DNA of 64,000 nucleotides from Planctomycetota bacterium (GCA_014381825.1 JACNKX010000113.1:6159-70158); one strand, 5' to 3'; positions 61 through 18,625 are shown, counted from the first letter of the stretch. Numbers and translations: made by a program. The notes: generated by a model from the letters alone, not told the origin.

Positions 61-963
61 ATGAAACCACTCACACTTCTGCTCCTAACGACTGTTGCTA
101 CGTGTACGTTCCTGTCTAACCTACGAGCCGAAGAGGACGGCAAGCTGCGGATCATCGCCTTCGGTGCGCATCCCGATGACTGTGAGTTCAAGATGGCGGG
201 AACGGCCGTCAAATGGGCGCAGCAAGGTCACCATGTCAAGTTAGTTTCGGTCACCAACGGAGACATCGGCCACTGGCGAATGGCGGGCGGACCGCTTGCA
301 AAGCGACGGACTGCGGAGGTTCATGAAGCAGCGAGGCGCATTGGCACAACGGCCGAAGTACTCGACATTCACGACGGCGAACTGCTACCAACGCTCGACA
401 ACCGCCAGAAGATCACGCGACTGATTCGCGAATGGAATGCCGACATCGTGATCGCGCATCGCCCGAACGACTATCATCCCGATCATCGCTACACGGGAAT
501 TTTGATCCAAGATTCAGCCTATATGGTCGCCGTTCCCTTCTTTTGCCCGGACGTTCCGCCACTGAAGAGCAATCCTGTCTTCATGTACTACTCAGACGGT
601 TTTCAAAAGCCGAATCCGTTTCATCCCGACGTGATTGTTGCGATTGATGATGTCTTCGAGAAGAAGATGGACGCCGTGGATGCGTTGGTCTCGCAAGTCT
701 ACGAAGGCGGAGCACTAGGTTCCGAAGAGACATTGCGCCAACGCCACGCCGACAATCCGATTGCCCGTCGCGAATGGGCCACCGCAAGCTGGCAGAGGCG
801 ACAAGGTAGAATCGCAGACAAGTATCGCGAAGCCTTGATCGAATGGTACGGCGATGAAGCTGGCAAAGCGGTCAAGTACGCTGAAGCATTCGAAGTCTGC
901 GAGTACGGACGCCGACCGACTCACGAAGAGTTGAAGAAATTGTTTCCGTTCTTTAGCGAATGA
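61..963 (+). CDS. PIG-L (LmbE-like) family deacetylase, probably secreted
   Basis: 300-aa ORF with ATG start and a hydrophobic N-terminal signal-like segment. 'GAHPDDCE' and 'HRPNDYHPDHR' motifs are typical of PIG-L/LmbE zinc deacetylases. Confidence 0.8.
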   Translation: MKPLTLLLLTTVATCTFLSNLRAEEDGKLRIIAFGAHPDDCEFKMAGTAVKWAQQGHHVKLVSVTNGDIGHWRMAGGPLAKRRTAEVHEAARRIGTTAEVLDIHDGELLPTLDNRQKITRLIREWNADIVIAHRPNDYHPDHRYTGILIQDSAYMVAVPFFCPDVPPLKSNPVFMYYSDGFQKPNPFHPDVIVAIDDVFEKKMDAVDALVSQVYEGGALGSEETLRQRHADNPIARREWATASWQRRQGRIADKYREALIEWYGDEAGKAVKYAEAFEVCEYGRRPTHEELKKLFPFFSE

Positions 964-1029
964 CGCAGCGCGGGCGACACAAAAGATAGGCCCTGGAACC
1001 AAATTACTCAGATTCCAGGGCCCCGTCGC

Positions 1030-2136
1030 TTACAACAAGTTCACGACTCGATCCGCCAAACCCTTCTCGCCAAGTACGACGTTCAGGTTGCCGGTCGATG
1101 CGATCTTTTCCAGAACCTCCAGCTCGCGCAATCGCATGAGCGTCGGGTTGCTGTCCAGGACCTTGGCCGTGTTGGCTTGACTGCGCATGGCAGCCGTTTC
1201 CTCACGACGCACGATCAAGTTGGCCTCGGCAGCCTTCTTGGCTTCCGTCACCTTGTTCATCAAGTCCTTCATGTCGCCCGGTAGGATCACATCGCGGATT
1301 CCGATCGAGACAACTTCCAGACCCAAATGCGTCGCGCGGTCGCGAACCATCTTCTCCAGCTCACGAGCCACTTCATCCTTGGCTGCCAAAAACGAATCCA
1401 GCTCGCTCGCACCGACAACAGCTCGCAATGCCAACTGCACATCGCGGTACAGCGCCTGTTGCGCGCCTTCGGACACCGTGACCGCTTGTCGAGCATCGAC
1501 GATGCGAAAGGTTACGACCGCGTTCATACGCAGCGTCACCTTGTCGGCCGTCATGATCTCTTGACCACCGACGTCCAACATCGTCTCACGCATATCGACC
1601 TCAACAACCTTGGCCACAGCAACGTCACGCCAGAACGCGTACAAGCCCGGCGACAGCGTGTCGATGTACTTGCCGTCCTGAAACAAGACGCCAACGTGTT
1701 CTCGCTCAATTCGGCAGATCTCAAGCAAGCGAGCCGCATGCGCCGATTTTGCCATCACCGAAAGCTCGGCGTGCTGGAAACGCACTTGGCGCGCGTCGAG
1801 AATCTCGACGCGCACGTCACGCGTGTTCTTCCAGTAGGCGTACAGACCAGGTGACAGAACGACGCTGAATCGACCATCGATCCAGACCAATGCTCGCTCG
1901 TGATCCTTCAGGTCAAGCACCTCTGCGCGCTCGGCGAGCGCACCTGACTTGACGATCGTGTCGAGCTTGTCGTGAACCAACCACGGGTCACGCTGCGAAA
2001 CGATGCGCACTCGCACCTTGTACAGCGGATCGAACAACCAGTGTCGGCCTTCCGTTAGCAAGCCCTTGAACTCTCGGTCGCGGAACAGCAGACCGATCTC
2101 GTCGCTGCGGATCTTGATTCGCCTAAATAGGATCAT
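1030..2136 (-). CDS. SPFH/band-7 (slipin-like) family protein
   Basis: The long ORF has SPFH-type sequence ('IRDVILPGDMKDLMNKVTEAKKAAEANLI'). I moved the start to the ATG at 2136 ('MILFRR') because GGAGG lies 5 nt upstream. The track's longer 5' extension runs into a palindromic repeat. Confidence 0.8.
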   Translation of the reverse strand: MILFRRIKIRSDEIGLLFRDREFKGLLTEGRHWLFDPLYKVRVRIVSQRDPWLVHDKLDTIVKSGALAERAEVLDLKDHERALVWIDGRFSVVLSPGLYAYWKNTRDVRVEILDARQVRFQHAELSVMAKSAHAARLLEICRIEREHVGVLFQDGKYIDTLSPGLYAFWRDVAVAKVVEVDMRETMLDVGGQEIMTADKVTLRMNAVVTFRIVDARQAVTVSEGAQQALYRDVQLALRAVVGASELDSFLAAKDEVARELEKMVRDRATHLGLEVVSIGIRDVILPGDMKDLMNKVTEAKKAAEANLIVRREETAAMRSQANTAKVLDSNPTLMRLRELEVLEKIASTGNLNVVLGEKGLADRVVNLL

Positions 2137-2149
2137 CTTCTCCTCCAAA

Positions 2150-2310
2150 GTAGCCATCACTCTCCGAGTGATGAGCGCTGTAAATTGTCGTTCTAAAACT
2201 CTAAGTCGTTTCGATCTCGAAGCTGCTCTACGCGTCATCGTTTGCCGTAACAATCAACCGTTGTTTGTCCTCAACTCGAACGGGCTCATCACTCGGAGAG
2301 CGATGGCTAC
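2150..2310. repeat. Paired palindromic repeat, copy 1 (arms 2150-2178 and 2282-2310, inverted, ~103-bp spacer)
   Basis: Arm consensus is GTAGCCATCACTCTCCGAGTGATGAGC. It contains an 8-bp stem (CATCACTC/GAGTGATG) with a 3-nt loop. The second arm is the reverse complement of the first. Confidence 0.85.
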
Positions 2311-2691
2311 GACGCCTTCGGCCGGCGAAACGTACTTCGAGTCACGTTTGTGAACGCGGAGTGTCGCTTGAGTGATTGATTTGCTTTGCAGGCTGGTACG
2401 TGATCAATGCGTTTGTTGACAAGCCAAACTCATCAATCCTCACATCTCCCAATCGCATCGTCCTACAAAACTCATCCAACACCGCTACGCACTACAAGGC
2501 TTTCGCTTACGCTGCTGCGATTTGACTCTCGCGGACAGTCGCTCGATGTCTTACACCAGCCAATTGGCCGATGATCAAATCACCTCACGTCGCCGGAGCT
2601 GGCAAACAGCAGCCGACTCATCAATACGCTCGCCGTCCTCCAGCTTCCTGTTGCGTTTTCCAACGCTGGTCGGAGACAGGTTTTGAGCCTG

Positions 2692-2764
2692 TTTTTGGTA
2701 CGGGAATCGAACCCGTGACAGCCAGATTAGTGGTCTGGTGCTCTAACCTCTGAGCTAACCGTGG
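2692..2764 (-). pseudogene. tRNA-like unit at the distal end of the array (possible pseudogene)
   Basis: The minus strand shows a good D arm (GCTC-AGAGGTTA-GAGC), anticodon arm (CCAGA-CCACTAA-TCTGG) and T arm (ACGGG-TTCGATT-CCCGT). Only 3 of 7 acceptor pairs form (CCACGGT vs ACCAAAA), and the loop has C at position 33. Confidence 0.4.
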
Positions 2765-2888
2765 TGGATCACAATGCCTTTGTCATAATCATCACAGAAC
2801 ACACATCACCAACTGGTCAATCGCGACACGCGGCGAATGAGCTGCTAGTCCCAGCACTTCTAACCCTTGCTTAAAACTTCATACAAAG

Positions 2889-2960
2889 AGACGCCGGTGG
2901 GAGTCGAACCCACTTGAAGCTGCTTTGCAGGCAGCCGCCTTACCGTCTGGCTCCAGCGTC
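2889..2960 (-). tRNA. tRNA-Cys (GCA)
   Basis: 72-nt cloverleaf folded by eye. Acceptor is GACGCTG/CGGCGTC, anticodon arm GCTGC-CTGCAAA-GCAGC, T arm GTGGG-TTCGACT-CCCAC, discriminator U. No CCA is encoded. Confidence 0.8.
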
Positions 2961-3018
2961 ATACGAAGGATGAACAGAATGTTTCAGCCTTCCACCTTCA
3001 TACTTCAACCTTCTCCAG

Positions 3019-3090
3019 CACCCCACCGAGGAATCGAACCCCGTCTGACAGATTCGAAGTCTGCCGTGCCGTCCATCACACTCGTAGGGC
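3019..3090 (-). tRNA. tRNA-Arg (TCG)
   Basis: 72-nt cloverleaf. Anticodon arm is GCAGA-CTTCGAA-TCTGT and T arm CGGGG-TTCGATT-CCTCG. The acceptor GCCCTAC/GTGGGGT has G-U pairs. Confidence 0.7.
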
Positions 3091-3094
3091 AAAA

Positions 3095-3180
3095 TGGCGG
3101 AGTGACTAGAGCCGAGTGACTAGAGCCGGAGCATGCTTCCGGCTCTTGACGCTTCCCACTCGACTCTCGACCTTCAAAAG
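3095..3180 (-). other. Structured ~86-nt spacer with a 14-bp tandem duplication; not foldable as a tRNA
   Basis: 'gagtgactagagcc' occurs twice in tandem (3100-3127). A near-perfect hairpin AGAGCCGGAGC-AT-GCTTCCGGCTCT follows at 3121-3146. An outer ~10-bp pairing is also possible (GAGTCGAGTG/CACTCGGCTC on the minus strand). The unit ends in ...CTCCGCCA, but no T-loop or matching 5' acceptor exists. Confidence 0.5.
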
Positions 3181-3250
3181 CAGGAGTGCAAGGATTCGAA
3201 CCCTGTCTGGCAGTTTTGGAGGCTGCCTGCTCTCCCAGGAGCACACTCCT
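3181..3250 (-). tRNA. tRNA-Trp (CCA)
   Basis: Acceptor AGGAGTG/CACTCCT is perfect. Anticodon loop is CTCCAAA, T arm CAGGG-TTCGAAT-CCTTG, discriminator G. The D region is slightly short, giving 70 nt. Confidence 0.7.
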
Positions 3251-3324
3251 ATAAGGAAGGAGGAAGTGAGACGGCTGAAGGGTGAATTACCATTCTGCCA
3301 TTCTCATCCTTCATCCTTCCGACT

Positions 3325-3918
3325 TCATCCTTTCAGCTCCGCGTTCCAGTACGCTTCGCTGAGAAACTTCGTCCAACTTTTGATCGGTACGCTGTCTGTT
3401 GCGTATACCGGCTTCCAAGTCGGACGTACCGGTTGCTTCCGCAGCCGGATGCGTGCTTGCTCGGGCGTGCGATCCGCCTTGCGGTGGTTGCACGCTAGAC
3501 ACGCCAGCACACAGTTGTCCCACGTCGACTGGCCGCCGTGGGCTCGCGGAACTACGTGATCAATCGTCAACTCGTCCGTGCCCGGTTGCACTCCACAGTA
3601 CACACACGTGAACTTGTCACGCTTGAAAATGTTCCGGCGGCTGAAGGCGACTTGCGCCGACGGCACCGCGTCATATTCCGTCAGCGTCACAACTTCCGGA
3701 ACACGAATCTGTCGCGATACGCCTTGGACGAACGCGTCGTCATCCGTCGGACGAAGTTGCGCCCAATCGCCCCAGTCGTACGTCTGGTAGTCACGCGGGT
3801 CGACCGCACGAGCCGTACCGCGATACAACTTGACCAAAGCGCGTGCTACCGTCGCGATGTGGACAGCTTGCCAGTTGCGGTTCAGCACCAGCGTCGGGCG
3901 TTGCAATACGTGCGTCAT
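3325..3918 (-). CDS. HNH endonuclease
   Basis: 197-aa ORF with ATG start and AAGGAG upstream. It has a Cys pair 'CVYCG', 'LTIDHVVPRAHGG' and 'NCVLACLACNHRK', the ββα-Me HNH signature. It lies on the same strand as the tRNA array and inside it. Confidence 0.85.
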   Translation of the reverse strand: MTHVLQRPTLVLNRNWQAVHIATVARALVKLYRGTARAVDPRDYQTYDWGDWAQLRPTDDDAFVQGVSRQIRVPEVVTLTEYDAVPSAQVAFSRRNIFKRDKFTCVYCGVQPGTDELTIDHVVPRAHGGQSTWDNCVLACLACNHRKADRTPEQARIRLRKQPVRPTWKPVYATDSVPIKSWTKFLSEAYWNAELKG

Positions 3919-3980
3919 GGCCTTTGCGTTCCGCTCCTTTACTTGGTCATTGTGATTTGGAAATTGGAATTTACATTAAG

Positions 3981-4055
3981 GGTGTCCGGGGGGAGTTGAA
4001 CCCACCACCTCGACTTTCACAAAGTCGCGTGCGAAGCCGCTACACTACGAACACC
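3981..4055 (-). tRNA. tRNA-His (GTG)
   Basis: Anticodon arm is CGACT-TTGTGAA-AGTCG. An encoded extra 5' G(-1) pairs with C73, the bacterial tRNA-His hallmark. T loop is TTCAACT. Confidence 0.8.
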
Positions 4056-4144
4056 ATATTGAACATCGAACGCTGGACGTCGAACTTCCAACATCGAAGT
4101 AATTCAGCATTCGACGTTGGAAGTTCGATGTTCAACGTTCACAG

Positions 4145-4217
4145 CGCCCCGACCAGGATTCGAACCCGGAACTTCTCGTTAGAAGCGAGAGATGATTATC
4201 CATTTCACCATCGAGGC
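4145..4217 (-). tRNA. tRNA-Arg (TCT)
   Basis: 73-nt cloverleaf. Acceptor is GCCTCGA/TCGGGGC, anticodon arm TCTCG-CTTCTAA-CGAGA, T arm CCGGG-TTCGAAT-CCTGG. Confidence 0.8.
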
Positions 4218-4278
4218 ATCTTCGTGGCGACGAGCATCTTGCTTGTCGATTCGCAAGCTGGAAGCTTACGCCACATAG

Positions 4279-4364
4279 CGGAAGGCATGGGATTCGAACC
4301 CACATCTCCTGACGGAGGCACTCATTAGCAGTGAGGCCCGGCGAACCGTATCCGGCTACCTTCC
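4279..4364 (-). tRNA. tRNA-Ser (GCT), class II
   Basis: 86 nt with anticodon loop CTGCTAA and a long variable arm (GCCTCCGTCAGGAGAT). T arm is GTGGG-TTCGAAT-CCCAT, acceptor GGAAGGT/GCCTTCC, discriminator G. Confidence 0.8.
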
Positions 4365-4438
4365 GAGTTTGGAGAAGTCAGAGTTCGGTAGTCAGATTCT
4401 GTTGCTGACCGCTGACTCCTGACTTCTTTTCTTCAAGT

Positions 4439-4505
4439 GGCGGGCATGGGGGTCGCACCCATCCGTCCAGGCTTATGAGGCCCGGTTGAGCACTGGCTCG
4501 CCCGC
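4439..4505 (-). tRNA. Atypical short tRNA-like gene with CAT anticodon (Met/Ile2-type; function uncertain)
   Basis: Acceptor GCGGGCG/TGCCCGC and anticodon arm CGGGC-CTCATAA-GCCTG are good. The unit is only 67 nt, with a truncated D region and a non-canonical T loop (ATGGG-TGCGACC-CCCAT). Confidence 0.45.
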
Positions 4506-4588
4506 GATGTTTCTTGAGAGGTCAGGGATCAGAAGTCAGATTCTCTAACTGACCTCTGACTTCCGATCTCTGACGTCTTTCTTCCCAG

Positions 4589-4661
4589 TGGCGCGGACGG
4601 GAATCGAACCCGCGTCGGCGAGATTGAAAGTCTCGCTGCAAAACCAACATCGCACCGCGTC
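4589..4661 (-). tRNA. tRNA-Glu (TTC)
   Basis: 73 nt with anticodon arm CGAGA-CTTTCAA-TCTCG and T arm GCGGG-TTCGATT-CCCGT. The acceptor GACGCGG/CCGCGCC has one A-C mismatch. Confidence 0.7.
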
Positions 4662-4681
4662 AAATGTTTTCAGCATCACAG

Positions 4682-4766
4682 TGGGTTGTGAAGGAATCGA
4701 ACCTCTCGTCGCCACCTCACAGTTTTCTGACAACGGGGCTACAACCCGCCGCGAGGAGCACAACCC
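4682..4766 (-). pseudogene. Degenerate tRNA-like unit with a duplicated 5' acceptor segment
   Basis: T arm (AGAGG-TTCGATT-CCTTC) and 3' acceptor ACAACCC are present. The complementary GGGTTGT occurs twice (4741-4747 and 4760-4766). Neither the 66-nt nor the 85-nt version gives a normal D arm. CAG or GTA anticodon loops are both only weakly supported. Confidence 0.35.
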
Positions 4767-4807
4767 GTTGGCACATGACCAAATGCGAATGGCCAGTGAT
4801 CAACAAG

Positions 4808-4887
4808 TAGCACGGGTGGGAGTCGAACCCACAAACAACATCACGAAGGTTTGAACTTCGTCGCTTTGCCAGTTTGCGTACCGCGCC
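4808..4887 (-). tRNA. tRNA-Leu (CAA)
   Basis: 80 nt with acceptor GGCGCGG/CCGTGCT (two G-U pairs) and D arm CGC-AAACTGGCAAA-GCG. Anticodon arm is CGAAG-TTCAAAC-CTTCG, the variable region is 11 nt, and the T arm is GTGGG-TTCGACT-CCCAC. Discriminator is A. Confidence 0.75.
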
Positions 4888-4974
4888 GAATTTGAAGGTT
4901 GAAGGAGGAAGGCAGAAGGAAGAAACGCCTCTATCATTCATCCTTCTAACTTCAAACTTCTTCCTTCTCAGAAG

Positions 4975-5049
4975 CGTCCCCGGTGGGATTTGAACCCACG
5001 ACCTCCACCGTGACAGGGTGGCGAGCACTCCAGACTGCTCTACGAGGAC
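4975..5049 (-). tRNA. tRNA-Asp (GTC)
   Basis: 75 nt with acceptor GTCCTCG/CGGGGAC and D arm GAGC-AGTCTGGAGT-GCTC. Anticodon arm is CCACC-CTGTCAC-GGTGG, T arm GTGGG-TTCAAAT-CCCAC, discriminator G. Confidence 0.85.
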
Positions 5050-5130
5050 AGGAACGAAGGTGGAAGGATGAGGGATGAAATTGATTGGGCTTCTTCATCC
5101 TTCGGCCTTCATACTTCATCCCTCAATGAG

Positions 5131-5204
5131 TAGCTCGAGTGGGATTCGAACCCACAGCATCTCTGGTTCTAAGCCAAAGTGGTCTGCCAATTGCCTACCG
5201 AGCC
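5131..5204 (-). tRNA. tRNA with TAG anticodon (Leu by anticodon) but a short variable region
   Basis: 74 nt with acceptor GGCTCGG/TCGAGCT and a Leu-like D loop 'AATTGGCAGA'. Anticodon arm is TTTGG-CTTAGAA-CCAGA, and only ~5-6 nt separate it from the T arm GTGGG-TTCGAAT-CCCAC. Discriminator is A. Confidence 0.65.
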
Positions 5205-5218
5205 GTATATGCCGTCAG

Positions 5219-5293
5219 TGCCCAGAGCAGGAGTCGAACCTGCAATCATCTGGGTTTAAGCCAGACCGCTCTGCCGGGTTGGCGTACCTGGGC
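5219..5293 (-). tRNA. tRNA with TAA anticodon (Leu by anticodon) but a short variable region
   Basis: 75 nt with acceptor GCCCAGG/TCTGGGC and a D loop containing 'CCCGGCAGA'. Anticodon arm is TCTGG-CTTAAAC-CCAGA, the variable region is 5 nt (TGATT), and the T arm is GCAGG-TTCGACT-CCTGC. Discriminator is A. Confidence 0.65.
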
Positions 5294-5370
5294 ATCCGTC
5301 GCCATCACACTCCGAAGGACGAGCACCTGTCGTTAAGGGCTCGTCTCTTGGAAAGTGACGGCTACTTAAG

Positions 5371-5443
5371 TAGTCCTGGAGGGACTCGAACCCCCGATCG
5401 TCTCCTTGTAAGAGAGCTGCCGTTGCCGCTGGGCCACAGGACT
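5371..5443 (-). tRNA. tRNA-Val (TAC)
   Basis: 73 nt with a perfect acceptor AGTCCTG/CAGGACT, anticodon loop CTTACAA, T arm GGGGG-TTCGAGT-CCCTC and discriminator A. Confidence 0.75.
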
Positions 5444-5527
5444 GAAATAGTTTTCAGTTGATAGTGTTCAGTATTCAGTCAGCTTGTACTGAACACTGAA
5501 AACTCGAAACTGAACACTTACTTCAAG

Positions 5528-5612
5528 CGGAAGCCGTGAGACTCGAACTCACAAGCGGTTGTTGCCGCCACCTGTTTTCAAGACAGGGCCCTCATCCAGC
5601 CGGATGACTTCC
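5528..5612 (-). tRNA. tRNA-Ser (TGA), class II
   Basis: 85 nt with anticodon arm CCTGT-CTTGAAA-ACAGG and a long variable arm TGGCGGCAACAACCGCTT. T arm is GTGAG-TTCGAGT-CTCAC, acceptor GGAAGTC/GGCTTCC, discriminator G. Confidence 0.8.
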
Positions 5613-5694
5613 GTATGTCGTCATGGCACACCACGACGCACGCTCCTCTCAGTTCGTTAAGAGTCCACCTAACGGAGTGAGGCGACTACACTAG

Positions 5695-5766
5695 CTCGGG
5701 GAGAAGGACTCGAACCTTCACCTCCTGCTTCAAAGGCAGGCCGCCTAGCCATTAGCAGATCCCCGA
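5695..5766 (-). tRNA. tRNA-Gln (TTG)
   Basis: 72 nt with acceptor TCGGGGA/TCCCCGA (U1-A72, as in bacterial tRNA-Gln). Anticodon arm is CCTGC-CTTTGAA-GCAGG, T arm GAAGG-TTCGAGT-CCTTC, discriminator G. Confidence 0.8.
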
Positions 5767-5774
5767 TCGAAGAG

Positions 5775-5846
5775 AGTGCCCTGCGGGAGTCGAACCCGCC
5801 TCGCCAGGTTGGAAGCCTGGAACCTTTGCCGCTCGGCCAAGGGCAC
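5775..5846 (-). tRNA. tRNA-Gly (TCC)
   Basis: 72 nt with a perfect acceptor GTGCCCT/AGGGCAC. Anticodon arm is CCAGG-CTTCCAA-CCTGG, T arm GCGGG-TTCGACT-CCCGC, discriminator U. Confidence 0.8.
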
Positions 5847-5860
5847 ATTTCAATAACAAG

Positions 5861-5932
5861 CTGCGGTGGAAGGACTCGAACCTTCAATCGTTGGCTTAAC
5901 AGGCCACCGCCTTACCGTTTGGCCACACCGCA
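5861..5932 (-). tRNA. tRNA-Asn (GTT)
   Basis: 72 nt with acceptor TGCGGTG/CACCGCA, anticodon loop CTGTTAA, T arm GAAGG-TTCGAGT-CCTTC and discriminator G. Confidence 0.8.
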
Positions 5933-5945
5933 GTAGATGAATCAG

Positions 5946-6019
5946 TCACGATGGTCGGATTTGAACCGACGGTCCCCAGTTCCCGAAACTGGTGCGATGC
6001 CAGACTTCGCCACATCGTG
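5946..6019 (-). tRNA. tRNA-Pro (CGG)
   Basis: 74 nt with acceptor CACGATG/CATCGTG. Anticodon arm is CCAGT-TTCGGGA-ACTGG with G37, T arm GTCGG-TTCAAAT-CCGAC, discriminator A. Confidence 0.8.
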
Positions 6020-6026
6020 AGACCAG

Positions 6027-6116
6027 AGCGCCCAGCGGGAGTTGAACCCGCACTTCCGCCATGGCAAGGCAGTAGGCTACCGCCGACCAACCTTCGGTCG
6101 GTGCCCGCATGGGCGT
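6027..6116 (-). tRNA. tRNA-Gly (GCC)-like, 90 nt, with an extra 19-nt hairpin in the D-loop region
   Basis: Anticodon arm CTGCC-TTGCCAT-GGCGG, T arm GCGGG-TTCAACT-CCCGC and discriminator U are Gly-like. The acceptor ACGCCCA/TGGGCGC has an A1-C72 mismatch. The D region contains a perfect hairpin CCGACC-GAAGGTT-GGTCGG (6083-6101). Confidence 0.5.
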
Positions 6117-6148
6117 TTGGTGCTGAACCGAATTGTCAAAGATCAGAA

Positions 6149-6266
6149 TAGCCATCACTCTCCGAGTGATGAGCCCACCCCCCAATCGCTCGGCTGCCAA
6201 TGAAGTCGGCTTGCAATTTAGCCATTAGCACTTCAACGGGCTGATCACTCGGAGCGTGATTGCTAC
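6149..6266. repeat. Paired palindromic repeat, copy 2 (arms 6149-6174 and 6238-6266), inside the tRNA array
   Basis: Same consensus as copy 1: 'tagccatcactctccgagtgatgagc' and, inverted, 'gggctgatcactcggagcgtgattgctac'. The second arm is more diverged. Confidence 0.8.
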
Positions 6267-6273
6267 TTTCAAG

Positions 6274-6345
6274 AGCACCGGGTGGGACTCGAACCCACGT
6301 AACCGCTTTACGGGAGCGGTGTCTTGGCCGCTAGACGACCAGTGC
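6274..6345 (-). tRNA. tRNA with CGT anticodon (Thr by anticodon), atypical C32/C33 loop, Glu-like body
   Basis: 72 nt with acceptor GCACTGG/CCGGTGC and D arm GTC-TAGCGGCCAA-GAC. Anticodon arm is CCGCT-CCCGTAA-AGCGG, T arm GTGGG-TTCGAGT-CCCAC, discriminator U. Position 33 is C rather than the near-universal U. Confidence 0.6.
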
Positions 6346-6429
6346 TTGCTTCGTTTTCAGCAATCAGTGTTCAGTTTTCAGTCTCTTTGGCTGAACACCA
6401 AAAACTTCTTACTGAAAACTTCGACTCAG

Positions 6430-6501
6430 TGGGGCCGGAGGGATTCGAACCCACGCCGTGCGGTTTAAAAGACCGCTGTGCGACCACTACACCACAACCC
6501 C
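6430..6501 (-). tRNA. tRNA-Lys (TTT)
   Basis: 72 nt with acceptor GGGGTTG/CGGCCCC (G-U pairs). Anticodon arm is GCGGT-CTTTTAA-ACCGC, T loop TTCGAAT, discriminator A. Confidence 0.75.
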
Positions 6502-6587
6502 AGATTGATGTGGGGCTGCGTTTGAATCGTTGCCGGACAGTCATTTCCTCTGGCTCCTGAATTCTGTTCTCAGACGTCTTCCGCGAG

Positions 6588-6659
6588 TGGATCGGGAGGC
6601 GCTCGAATCCTCGTCTGCAGCTCTTCAGACTGCCGCTAAACCTTCTCAGCTACCGATCC
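6588..6659 (-). tRNA. tRNA-Phe (GAA); first gene of the array in transcription order
   Basis: 72 nt with a perfect acceptor GGATCGG/CCGATCC and anticodon arm GCAGT-CTGAAGA-GCTGC. The T arm GAGGA-TTCGAGC-GCCTC has an A53-G61 mismatch. Discriminator is A. Confidence 0.7.
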
Positions 6660-6746
6660 GTAATTGCGCACGTTGAGCGCAAGATTCGTCACTCTCTGTT
6701 TTGCATTGGGGATTGTCGCGTTGCCCGCGCTTCGACCAGGCGCATG

Positions 6747-6782
6747 AAAAAAGGCCTGATGTCTTTGTGACACTAGGCCTTT
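6747..6782 (-). terminator. Candidate intrinsic terminator downstream of the glycosyltransferase gene
   Basis: The minus strand reads AAAGGCCT-(17-nt loop)-AGGCCTTTTTT. This is a GC-core stem followed by a T-run, lying between the stop at 7023 and the tRNA array. The loop is rather large. Confidence 0.4.
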
Positions 6783-7022
6783 GGTTGCCTTACCCTAAGG
6801 GGCGAGTGTCACATGCGCAGCGCGAGTGGACTTTGTTCATTATCCACACTGATATTCCTACCCGCGTTGTATGTTGAGCTTATGAGACTCGACTGTAAAA
6901 ACATCATCTGTTGAATCCTCCGACGAACAAGACGCGCTCGTCGCATCTTTTATTTCCTTCGTACAGAGAAATAGACGAACTTCTTCCTAGATGGTTCGCG
7001 ATTCGTCGAAAAGAAAGTTTGT

Positions 7023-7973
7023 TTAATCGAGTTCGTCTATTAGACGATTCCACAACTCGCGTTCATGACGGGGCTCAACAAGAGGGAGCAGCCGACGGCA
7101 ACATCGCTCAAGCTTGGCATAGAACTGTTGATCTTGTTCAGCTCGTTGCAACATCACACGCAATTCGCTTGCATCGCCAACTTCGAAATAACCAGGATAG
7201 TCGTCACCGAGCAAACCGATCGATCCAGAAATTCGTGATGCAATGATTGGTGTGCCAGCTGCGACCGCTTCGGAGACAACATTAGCACCGCCTTCGAGTC
7301 GCGAACTCAACACCAACAAGCGCGCCCGAGCGAGTCTTCGCTTCGTCTGCGACGGAGACAACTCGCCGATCCATTGATAACGTGAGTTGCGATCCATCTC
7401 GTCACGCGCCCGCTGGGCCATCGATTTGCTGAGTGCAGCGCCGATGTGTACGATGCGGATGCGAGACGACTCAGGCAAACCTCTCGCCGCAATCGCCGTT
7501 CGAAACGGATCTTTCACTGGTCGCAAGTGCCCTACAACCGCGATCTCAAACACGGAACTCAATGGAGTCGGTGGCTTGGACAATCCGGTCGCGGATTGTT
7601 GAATGACTCGAGCCTTCGCTTGAAGCGGCTTTGGCAACGCAATCACACCTGCTGGCTGCAACAATACCAGACGGTCGGCCAGTTCAAGAGACTGCTGAGC
7701 CACACGGCTCGTCTTGATGTCACGATAGAGGTCCGTCCCCGTTAACGTGAGAAGCAGCGGGGCCTCCGAGCGCGCCTCGTGAAATCGGCGGACGGATTGC
7801 GCGCTACGCCTGGCGTGCAGAGCGATCATCAAATCGCACGGTTGCTGAACGAAGGACTCCGCCAAGGCAACTCGATGTCCCAAGTCGCGCAGCAAACTGG
7901 CCCACCGTAGCGCGGTGATGCGGTTGCCCTTGCGAGATCGCGGTGGCGCGGGAGTAACAATCAGAATCCGCAT
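7023..7973 (-). CDS. GT-B fold glycosyltransferase (GT4-like; N-terminus resembles the TIGR04348/SenB-type family)
   Basis: 316-aa ORF with ATG start. 'MRILIVTPAPPRSRKGNRITALRWASLLRDLGH' and the C-terminal 'EGGANVVSEAVAAGTPIIAS' are typical of retaining GT4-like enzymes. The family assignment is from memory only. Confidence 0.65.
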   Translation of the reverse strand: MRILIVTPAPPRSRKGNRITALRWASLLRDLGHRVALAESFVQQPCDLMIALHARRSAQSVRRFHEARSEAPLLLTLTGTDLYRDIKTSRVAQQSLELADRLVLLQPAGVIALPKPLQAKARVIQQSATGLSKPPTPLSSVFEIAVVGHLRPVKDPFRTAIAARGLPESSRIRIVHIGAALSKSMAQRARDEMDRNSRYQWIGELSPSQTKRRLARARLLVLSSRLEGGANVVSEAVAAGTPIIASRISGSIGLLGDDYPGYFEVGDASELRVMLQRAEQDQQFYAKLERCCRRLLPLVEPRHERELWNRLIDELD

Positions 7974-18507: not shown

Positions 18508-18546
18508 ATCGGCTTTGCGTTCCACCGTCGACGTGTTTTCATCAAA

Positions 18547-18613
18547 GTAGCCATCACTCTCCGAGTGACGAGCGCCAATTGCGTGGGCTTATCACTCGGA
18601 GAGTGATGGCCAC
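18547..18613. repeat. Paired palindromic repeat, copy 4 (arms 18547-18575 and 18585-18613, 9-bp spacer)
   Basis: 'gtagccatcactctccgagtgacgagcgc' and, inverted, 'gggcttatcactcggagagtgatggccac'. The copy sits between two convergent gene ends. Confidence 0.85.
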
Positions 18614-18625
18614 TGTAGATGCAGC

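Follow-up and report, generated by a model that had tools for sequence, protein, structure and literature searches.

Long arrays of transfer RNA (tRNA) genes are widespread and poorly understood, and a demonstrated role, survival under translational stress, together with a known regulator is available only for the array of Anabaena, which is silent and becomes induced by translational stress and inhibitors (PMC8421152, PMC10272220) and whose trn operon is controlled by TrcR, a ribbon-helix-helix repressor acting on 9-nt promoter repeats (PMC10272220). Such arrays have been surveyed as L-arrays, with Planctomycetes listed in the surveys (PMC4758250, PMC8421152), and HNH nuclease genes are linked to tRNA arrays in cyanobacteria (PMC8421152) as well as in mycobacteria and mycobacteriophages (PMC5966550). 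Within the phylum, Kim et al. (2016, PMC4807772) had already mentioned "degenerate tRNA gene clusters" that contain tRNA-Ile-UAU and had judged them dispensable. Here we analyze an array of this kind, with an embedded HNH gene, in a 64,000-nt stretch of DNA from a Planctomycetota bacterium (GCA_014381825.1 JACNKX010000113.1:6159-70158; hereafter the window, in which all feature positions are counted). An earlier interpretation of the window made from its nucleotides alone (the sequence-only reading) had supposed that no such array was characterized in Planctomycetes, a view that the listing of the phylum in the two surveys and the clusters of 2016 correct. Those clusters represent the same phenomenon in the same phylum (Ile-TAT occurs in 19 of 32 large arrays examined here), and that report mentions them briefly, with no description, in the text consulted, of the order of about 43 gene slots, the embedded HNH gene, the leader with its attenuator or the non-canonical members presented below. 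The kind of element is already known, the phylum included, and the interest of the present case would lie in an architecture shared across an order and in a candidate attenuator. We consider it probable that the array derives from an accessory tRNA operon of about 43 genes, an L-array, which was passed down vertically in the chromosome and has partly decayed in this copy, and that an attenuator leader precedes it.

The array resembles the trn operon on plasmid delta of Anabaena (Nostoc sp. PCC 7120) in being a long co-oriented operon of presumably supernumerary tRNAs with a linked, co-oriented HNH gene of the same family, in having some pseudogene or odd members, and in its Leu tRNAs with short variable regions (75-78 nt long in Anabaena). 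It differs in gene order, in the placement of the HNH gene (upstream there, embedded here) and in its spacers, which are 3-10 nt in Anabaena and include long hairpins in the clade of the window. Moreover, the Anabaena type is sprinkled among species, whereas the Pirellulales array is chromosomal and conserved across the order. A tRNA-by-tRNA orthology between the two was considered and rejected, as the identities, about 0.6, equal background. The Pirellulales arrays amount to a second, independent experiment of nature, in which an operon of this kind, with an HNH gene of the same family, is apparently wired through a cis-acting leader that reads the state of the ribosome directly.

ARAGORN called 20 tRNA genes in the window, all on the minus strand between 2888 and 6659, with none elsewhere in the 64 kb, while the Rfam tRNA model recovered 19 units at its gathering score, including a truncated unit at 2697-2760; in a relaxed Rfam scan both Ser genes appeared as sub-threshold tRNA-Sec matches. 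Together with the terminal tRNA-like element the units span 2697-6659 of the minus strand, or 3.96 kb, at a density of 5-6 per kb (20 ARAGORN genes, 24 units when the atypical ones are counted); an L-array is defined by at least 20 tRNA genes and at least two per kb (PMC4758250, PMC8421152), values that the window array reaches. Clustering of 20 tRNA genes in 4 kb against none in the remaining 60 kb is far beyond chance. As in the operons of that definition, all genes share one strand, the spacers measure 7-172 nt and the anticodon order is non-repetitive; a terminator scan found no terminator-like sites inside the array other than two lying in tRNA bodies. The canonical genes are the following.

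6587-6659, minus strand: tRNA-Phe-GAA, the first gene of the array (ARAGORN, Rfam)
6273-6501, minus strand: tRNA-Lys-TTT (6429-6501), a spacer hairpin and tRNA-Thr-CGT (6273-6345) (ARAGORN, Rfam)
4807-6019, minus strand: Pro-CGG, Asn-GTT, Gly-TCC, Gln-TTG, Ser-TGA, Val-TAC, Leu-TAA, Leu-TAG, Asp-GTC and Leu-CAA, with hairpin spacers
4588-4661, minus strand: tRNA-Glu-TTC (ARAGORN, Rfam)
3980-4364, minus strand: Ser-GCT, Arg-TCT and His-GTG (with encoded G-1 and C73), with hairpin spacers (ARAGORN, Rfam)
2888-3250, minus strand: Trp-CCA, Arg-TCG and Cys-GCA, with hairpin spacers (ARAGORN, Rfam)

These calls uphold most of what the sequence-only reading had described, namely a single-strand array between 2.7 and 6.7 kb, interrupted by one protein gene (the HNH gene at 3325-3918, minus strand, 197 amino acids, is the only open reading frame within the array), devoid of ribosomal RNA (no Rfam match in the window) and with no gene that encodes CCA. 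Its anticodon list likewise agrees with the calls, TAC included, since the gene labelled Cys-ACA by ARAGORN (5370-5443) is the orthologue of Val-TAC and 97% identical to the Val-TAC of a relative, and the two Leu genes it had singled out for short variable arms indeed have variable regions of 5 nt each (Leu-TAA, 76 nt; Leu-TAG, 75 nt; Leu-CAA has 81 nt). Two entries of the list stand in part: units with GCC and CAT exist, and both are atypical, the Gly-GCC unit being found only by relaxed ARAGORN and the CAT unit being a non-canonical tRNA-like RNA. Similarly, of the units that had been called atypical or degenerate, only Gly-GCC looks like a pseudogene, three others turn out to be conserved, covarying RNAs, and the segment at 6145-6257 is a dispersed repeat.

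To place the array among its relatives we surveyed the 80 best loci bearing the HNH gene (L-numbers such as L092 or L053 label HNH-bearing loci from relatives and phages), with counts for large arrays taken over the 32 arrays in L009-L088 that have at least 20 tRNAs. Most of the 80 HNH genes are embedded in an array of as many as 40 tRNA genes that run in the same direction, and in about 60 loci, in dozens of Pirellulales genomes, the anticodon order and the position of the HNH gene, between His-GTG and Trp-CCA, are kept. The shared series comprises about 43 slots: Phe-GAA, Glu-TTC, Pro-GGG, Pro-TGG, Ile-GAT, Lys-TTT, Ile-TAT, Lys-CTT, Thr-CGT, Gly-GCC, Pro-CGG, Asn-GTT, Ser-CGA, Gly-TCC, Gln-TTG, Gln-CTG, Ser-TGA, Val-TAC, Leu-TAA, Leu-TAG, Asp-GTC, Leu-CAA, Tyr-GTA, Glu-CTC, Leu-CAG, Met-CAT, Leu-GAG, Val-GAC, Thr-GGT, Ala-TGC, Ala-GGC, Ser-GCT, Arg-TCT, Ser-GGA, His-GTG, the HNH gene, Trp-CCA, Thr-TGT, Arg-CCT, Arg-CCG, Arg-TCG, Arg-GCG and Cys-GCA. 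The window array is this ancestral series minus about half its slots. Its closest relative, the congener L092 (HNH protein 94% identical), has the same flanks (DUF1501 and group-1 glycosyltransferase genes on one side, SPFH and PIG-L genes on the other) and only about 11 tRNAs; the two arrays are collinear except for clean block deletions, which in L092 removed Phe, Thr, Gly, Gln, Ser-TGA, Val, three Leu, Asp and Trp members, while Arg-GCG, lost from the window, is kept there. Block deletions from a fixed ancestor of about 43 slots provide a dated pattern of decay. Codon usage was rejected as the reason for which slots were retained (kept against lost slots: cognate-codon frequency, p = 0.41; relative synonymous codon usage, p = 0.78).

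The proposal that the array is an accessory, redundant set and not the housekeeping complement appears to be right, and for this lineage redundancy is deduced from the slot loss of the congener. Canonical tRNAs for Ala, Ile, Tyr and Met are all missing from the window array, which means that other tRNA genes must exist elsewhere, and its four-codon boxes for Thr and Pro retain one isoacceptor each (Thr-CGT and Pro-CGG). Supernumerary status is seen directly in relatives only: in L053 a stand-alone, canonical 84-nt Leu-CAA with a long variable arm lies a few kb from a 75-nt array Leu-CAA, and L056 has two Arg-CCG genes, the canonical stand-alone one a few kb from the odd array copy. At about 15 of the 80 HNH loci no tRNA genes lie close by, some genomes carry two arrays, and published tRNA counts in Pirellulales span 46 to 96 (PMC4807772). 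Counts and isoacceptor inventories of tRNAs in Planctomycetes should be read with the warning that they blend two functionally different pools. The sequence-only reading had held that conservation in relatives would mark the array as housekeeping; that test is invalid, because the array is both widely conserved and dispensable.

Two HNH loci in one genome were observed in several cases (L055 and L067, on the same contig 48 kb apart; L010 and L013; L011 and L012; L041 and L056), and in the L055/L067 and L010/L013 pairs both loci are long arrays of 35-40 tRNAs. The leaders of L055 and L067 are identical and each locus has its own SPFH gene, so the duplicated unit spans leader, array, HNH gene and SPFH gene. 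Arrays of the Pirellulales type with their HNH gene also occur in two metagenome-assembled genomes labelled Dechloromonas (L037) and Methanoregulaceae archaeon (L063), labels that probably reflect binning contamination in public assemblies. Metagenomic contigs with this HNH gene are mostly about 1 kb long; conserved flanking tRNA genes evidently break short-read assemblies, and these arrays are therefore likely to be under-represented in metagenome-assembled genomes.

Upstream of the first tRNA gene we found a conserved 5' module that occurs once per array and consists of a promoter motif resembling those of extracytoplasmic function (ECF) sigma factors, a short open reading frame (ORF) of 31-33 codons and a terminator abutting the first tRNA. 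In the window it is laid out as follows.

about 6972-6999, minus strand: promoter-like motif, GCGAACC and CGTCTA separated by 16 nt, as ECF-sigma-like -35 and -10 boxes
6809-6907, minus strand: leader ORF of 32 codons, MMFLQSSLISSTYNAGRNISVDNEQSPLALRM and stop, with an alternative in-frame ATG at 6946
6801-6812, minus strand: attenuator region 1, GTGACACTCGCC, the 5' antiterminator strand, with the leader stop (6811-6809) inside it
6747-6779, minus strand: terminator hairpin, regions 2 and 3 with the T-run, GGCCTAGTGTCAC-AAA-GACATCAGGCC-TTTTTT

A hairpin followed by a T-run, conserved in sequence, precedes the first tRNA in almost every array, and the T-run itself is invariant among leaders. 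Region 2, the 5' arm of this terminator, can pair either with region 3 or with the upstream region 1. The 2:3 terminator helix is 98.8% paired and contains GC/AU and CG/UA compensations, and the 1:2 antiterminator helix is 86.8% paired over 24 distinct sequences, compared with 22-44% in slid controls, with four pairs changed on both sides, a result matched by none of 500 shuffles. An invariant UGA, followed by C, occupies positions 2-4 of region 1. A covariance model of the leader identified 6744-6842 as the only full-length match in the window (66.8 bits) and one match per array in about 42 loci, 19 of which lay outside the training set; phage loci, the Anabaena plasmid and unrelated HNH loci gave no match. 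The leader follows the orientation of the inverted arrays L050 and L080, is kept before arrays cut to a few genes and, in L058, where no tRNAs are left, stands directly before the HNH gene.

In every one of 37 leaders the leader frame stays free of stops for 31 codons; the other two frames do so in 17 and 9 of the 37. An ATG lies 31 to 34 codons before the stop in 27 of the 37, with purine runs like Shine-Dalgarno sequences 8-14 nt upstream of the start; in the window GGAGGA precedes the first ATG by about 8 nt. The pooled ratio of nonsynonymous to synonymous polymorphism (pN/pS) is 0.76 in frame and about 1.02 off frame, in a noisy test, and the peptide has no Pfam match. When the nascent RNA was folded up to region 2, the 1:2 helix formed in all eight leaders modelled (-18 to -21 kcal/mol); the terminator formed once region 3 had been made, or when region 1 was masked by a ribosome at the stop codon, and it is the equilibrium minimum-energy fold in six of the eight. 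These energies fit a kinetic switch. Two traits of a ribosome-controlled attenuator are found here, in that mutually exclusive helices are combined with a U-tract and the position of a ribosome at the stop codon would overlap the alternative strand. We found no account of a fixed slot order, a leader or attenuator, or conserved non-canonical members in such arrays; a full-text literature search pairing tRNA arrays with attenuators returned nothing, and a leader-peptide attenuator before a tRNA array appears to be a previously undescribed candidate.

As for the promoter, GAAC-N15-18-CGTCTA has a single match in the 64 kb, at 6972-6997, and the strict motif, GAAC-N15-18-CGTCT[AT], lies at a fixed distance upstream of 31 of 40 leaders, compared with 0.8% of background segments; the conserved form, GAACC-N16-17-CGTCTA, is located about 60-90 nt upstream of the leader ORF. 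ECF promoters combine a -35 box containing AAC with a -10 box containing CGT, about 16-17 nt apart, and GAACC-N16-CGTCTA, which resembles them, is presumably a candidate of this class. A sigma-70 promoter was sought in 900-7200 and gave no match. A 12-nt inverted repeat, AATAGACGAACT (7030-7041) and AGTTCGTCTATT (6970-6981), brackets the promoter-like motif, its 3' arm overlapping CGTCTA, and L092 has GACGAAGT and ACTTCGTC at the same place, a compensatory change; this repeat may serve as an operator or may terminate the glycosyltransferase gene that lies upstream.

Taken together, these elements suggest a mechanism. Transcription would start at the ECF-type, stress-responsive promoter (6999-6972) and enter the leader encoding the 32-codon peptide. 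During healthy translation a ribosome would reach the UGA and cover region 1, leaving region 2 to pair with region 3, so that the terminator would halt the polymerase before tRNA-Phe and the array would be off. If ribosomes were scarce or stalled early, through starvation, damaged or cleaved tRNAs or translation inhibitors, region 1 would pair with region 2 and the polymerase would continue into the tRNA genes, the HNH gene and probably the SPFH gene. RNase P and 3' processing would next release the tRNAs from the polycistronic transcript, with CCA added post-transcriptionally and the spacer hairpins acting as processing or stability elements, and the released array tRNAs would top up or replace the housekeeping pool. 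This design predicts an array that would be silent normally and induced under translational stress, which is how the Anabaena array behaves; control there is exerted by TrcR, in place of the ECF-like promoter and leader-peptide attenuator modelled here.

Ribosome-mediated attenuators are known from the trp, his, leu and pyrBI leaders and from the antibiotic-sensing leaders of ABC-F resistance genes. The window leader is like these classic examples in its short predicted ORF with a putative ribosome-binding site, its exclusive helices and its U-tract terminator before the genes, and in that the ribosome's position would be decisive. Unlike them, it has three regions instead of four, which means that the absence of a ribosome gives read-through; no run of regulatory codons is evident, and the genes it would regulate are tRNAs and a nuclease, not biosynthesis or resistance genes. 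If true, this would be the first known case of tRNA genes being controlled in cis by a ribosome-sensing element and, if confirmed, it would supply a simple, testable mechanism for the timing of spare-tRNA deployment.

The set of tRNAs in the ancestral array gives the scheme a further aspect. Among the 32 large arrays Ile-TAT is present in 19, Arg-GCG in 22 and Arg-ACG in 3, and in L048 a stand-alone Arg-ACG (68 bits) is found outside the array. Arg-ACG is the form usual in bacteria. By using Ile-UAU and Arg-GCG, the ancestral set would decode without lysidine or inosine modification; Ile-TAT has been lost from the window copy. The full scheme, in which a leader acting as an alarm behind an ECF-type promoter gates a spare tRNA operon that is largely independent of these modifications (Ile-UAU, Arg-GCG, short-arm Leu), together with the HNH nuclease and non-canonical RNAs, the CAT unit with a remodelled D/T-loop pair among them, is one we advance tentatively, giving it somewhat less than an even chance.

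Several points weigh against these interpretations. A conserved mismatch interrupts the antiterminator helix, whose covariation comes from a small number of events; the leader peptide is weakly constrained (pN/pS 0.76), and 10 of 37 leaders are without an ATG at the usual distance. The ECF assignment depends on agreement with the consensus AAC … CGT. Read-through, leader translation and a decoding role for the array tRNAs are predictions made from sequence. The T-run of the window copy ends 87 nt short of tRNA-Phe, which may leave room for a second promoter. Finally, redundancy is shown in relatives and is only deduced for this genome.

In what we regard as the best of the other explanations, though an unlikely one, the small ORF and hairpin are a separate small-protein gene with its own terminator, and the array is transcribed from another promoter, either constitutively or under control of a regulatory protein, with no attenuation. 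The hairpin with its T-run is indeed a textbook terminator and the minimum-energy fold at equilibrium in six of eight leaders, the peptide has a recognizable conserved C-terminal motif, and the 87-nt gap of the window would accommodate such a promoter. In many loci, however, the T-run ends about 6 nt before tRNA-Phe, where there is no room for one. The module is moreover always 5' of the array and in its orientation, inverted, shrunken and tRNA-less (L058) cases included, and region 1 covaries with region 2 and holds the invariant stop. Weak sequence constraint is usual for leader peptides, and that seen here is expected of one and not of a functional protein.

A second alternative, which we hold to be quite improbable, views the array as a recently gained mobile or phage-derived island whose HNH gene is a selfish homing endonuclease spreading it, in the manner of SegB of phage T4. 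It draws on the HNH homologues that jumbo phages carry within their tRNA arrays and that also occur on cyanobacterial plasmids, on upstream flanks that differ between distant relatives, on the presence of two arrays in some genomes, and on a literature that takes array-linked HNH proteins for homing endonucleases and L-arrays for horizontally transferred elements (PMC8421152, PMC5966550, PMC2330249). The mycobacterial and phage arrays (PMC5966550) and the SegB region of T4 (PMC2330249) do share with our locus dense tRNA genes with an endonuclease gene, and translation-related cargo genes occur in some of the mycobacterial and phage arrays. However, those arrays are on plasmids and phages and have clearly spread horizontally, whereas no mobility is evident for the window array; SegB is a GIY-YIG enzyme and not an HNH protein, and homing is not apparent for the present element from its sequence.

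The immediate surroundings point the same way. The array lies between ordinary chromosomal genes (PIG-L and SPFH on one side, the group-1 glycosyltransferase and DUF1501 genes on the other), its G+C content matches that of its surroundings, and no integrase, transposase or att-like duplication was seen in its immediate flanks. A sprinkled distribution is a sign of horizontal transfer in the interpretation of PMC8421152, where it is not part of the L-array definition; the array is instead widespread in Pirellulales in the same order, with slot order and HNH position fixed, and syntenic in the congener. The link to mobile DNA drawn by the sequence-only reading accordingly finds no sign of recent mobility to lean on, and L092 keeps the locus between the same SPFH and glycosyltransferase genes. 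Phage carriage of a Pirellulales-type array was considered for one IMG/VR contig labelled viral (L097) and rejected: its SPFH flank is the ordinary one, and none of the five neighbouring ORFs scanned is a phage hallmark. An ancient phage origin of the array is possible.

With respect to its tRNAs, too, the array looks like part of its host. C and then T directly follow the discriminator base (N73) in all 20 window tRNAs and in about 90% of 1,218 in relatives, CCA almost never taking their place, which suggests a lineage-wide 3'-processing signal. The N73-C-T trailer was rejected as an array-specific mark, as the stand-alone tRNAs of these genomes share it, and being of a host-wide type it does not favor a recent island.

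The HNH gene itself bears on the question of homing.

3325-3918, minus strand: HNH nuclease gene, 197 amino acids, between His-GTG and Trp-CCA (Pfam HNH 3.5e-14, HNH_5)

It has more than 5,000 homologues, the best 120 of which are 65-94% identical and of the same length, and its relatives occur in at least 544 genomes (one genome per species), nearly all Pirellulales or Planctomycetia, in keeping with the earlier guess of a host related to Pirellulaceae. The catalytic core is intact, with D120, H121, N135, N144 and two CxxC pairs invariant, and the ratio of nonsynonymous to synonymous substitution rates (dN/dS) is 0.08-0.16. The sporadic presence and degeneration of homing endonucleases are not what we see: dN/dS is low, homologues are full-length, the position is fixed, and the gene persists after tRNA loss in some relatives. 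The Anabaena array-linked HNH gene, which we equate with all8564 by position, lies 200 nt upstream of the trn array and is 32.5% identical over 98% of the query (E = 2e-20); the window protein is shown to be a conserved orthologue of the HNH proteins linked to tRNA arrays in cyanobacteria and large phages. The comparative picture argues for a conserved cellular function and, if the scheme above is true, this family would be a working part of a translational-stress or anti-tRNase response and not a selfish homing enzyme. A known fold for the N-terminal domain was sought and rejected, the AlphaFold2 model (predicted local distance difference test score 79) matching PDB entries via the HNH core only, and sequence searches likewise match solved structures only in that core.

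Among jumbo-phage contigs from IMG/VR, four (L099-L101 and L103) have full-length HNH homologues 40-45% identical beside or within arrays of 6-37 tRNA genes, two of the four with a tmRNA gene and one with a predicted tRNA-Pyl(CTA). L099 and L100 have the run Arg-CCT, Arg-CCG, Arg-TCG and an Ile-TAT in common with the Pirellulales arrays. In phage Tunturi_5 the homologue lies in a tRNA region with genes for a CCA-adding enzyme and an RtcB-type ligase, and tblastn matches of the family include 158 mycobacteriophage records.

Very improbable, in our view, is a third alternative, that of a silent, decaying relic made mostly of pseudogenes and without current function. About half of the ancestral slots are gone with no relation to codon usage, one unit is a clear pseudogene and one repeat has been inserted, and the Rfam scores of the array tRNAs are mostly 33-66 bits, compared with 68 for the single stand-alone tRNA scored. 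Nevertheless, divergence among relatives shows the retained tRNAs and the HNH gene to be under purifying selection: the retained tRNAs diverge by 6-7% where the synonymous sites of the HNH gene diverge by 30-41% in the same relatives, a substitution rate 4-6 times lower. Their stems covary, identity elements are kept (G-1 and C73 in His, A73 in the Leu tRNAs), the short-arm Leu design shows compensatory changes in 10 of 18 and 16 of 22 pairs, and HNH gene and leader are strongly conserved. As for a housekeeping tRNA set, conservation in many relatives and coverage of all 20 amino acids by the fullest versions speak for it, but it is effectively refuted by the window copy, from which canonical Ala, Ile, Tyr and Met tRNAs and the decoders of many abundant codons are absent, by the congener, whose array at the corresponding locus lacks members for Phe, Asp, Trp, Val, Gln and Leu, and by canonical duplicates outside arrays and HNH genes without nearby tRNAs in relatives.

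The accessory operon proposed here also contains units that depart from the canonical cloverleaf.

6145-6257, minus strand: insertion of a species-specific dispersed palindromic repeat (related copies at 18546-18614 and about 2280-2312)
6028-6100, minus strand: Gly-GCC pseudogene with disrupted 5' end (relaxed ARAGORN only; Rfam 22.4 bits)
4682-4766, minus strand: D-armless Tyr-GTA-like RNA in the Tyr slot (conservation and consensus fold)
4439-4505, minus strand: non-canonical CAT tRNA-like RNA with a 4-nt D-loop and the T-loop TGCGACC
2697-2760, minus strand: terminal tRNA-like element (Rfam 48 bits, model positions 5-66)

The CAT, Tyr-like and terminal units are, by their conservation and predicted folds, structurally covarying RNAs and not debris. 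The CAT unit is kept in at least 24 relatives, with CAT invariant and compensatory changes in 9 of 21 pairs. The D-armless Tyr unit is about 81-83% identical in six relatives, with a consensus fold of 25 pairs of which five show compensatory changes, and 97.7% identical in L092, compared with about 80% for the DNA around it. The terminal unit occurs in at least 19 relatives, where compensatory changes back its cloverleaf and the SPFH gene is nearly always next downstream; its acceptor stem has 3 bp and positions 33-36 of its anticodon loop are unconstrained. Hypermutation of this loop was rejected, since related loci differ by single steps, as expected of an unconstrained loop and not of targeted diversification, and identity as a Y RNA was rejected as well (no Rfam match). 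All three RNAs merit biochemical study. Gly-GCC is the sole pseudogene-like unit: it is 96.5% identical to its orthologues over positions 15-72 and unlike them in its first 14 nt, its 5' end being replaced beside the inserted palindrome. The core of that repeat, GCCATCACTCTCCGAGTGATGAGCCC, has at least three copies in the window and more in contigs of the same species, and is absent from the arrays of relatives.

The spacers are unusual as well. In the window 11 of the 16 that measure at least 57 nt fold as one long hairpin (z -2.7 to -8.5), and 7 of the window's 15 long inverted repeats fall in the array. Spacers of relatives are mostly tight (median 13 nt), and those of 50-130 nt have z < -3 in 31% of cases, compared with 3% of control segments. 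A plain minimum-free-energy scan of the window was uninformative, the enrichment of hairpins being visible only by inverted-repeat detection. The idea that the hairpins are intrinsic terminators was rejected, since all of them lack a U-tract and the terminator scan called no site in a spacer; for want of U-tracts we infer that they are processing or stability elements. In L071, Rfam matches to a group II intron (domains 1-4 and the catalytic domain) lie between array tRNA genes, at 4600-5302.

Downstream of the array the neighbourhood is again shared among relatives.

1030-2253, minus strand: SPFH/Band-7 gene, co-oriented with the array and directly downstream of it (Pfam Band_7)

In 22 relatives an SPFH gene 65-74% identical to this one comes next after the array, and one genome shows this at both of its arrays. 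A Ro60/TROVE (Rsr) gene lies downstream of the array in seven relatives (L026, L034, L048, L060, L065, L068 and L071), near which no Y RNA matched Rfam at the gathering score. An EF-Tu gene was further seen in or next to the array of L021 (5940-7442), L035 (10917-12116), L037, L049 and L080 (13055-14281), that of L080 being confirmed by Pfam, and an extra elongation-factor copy may thus travel with the spare tRNAs.

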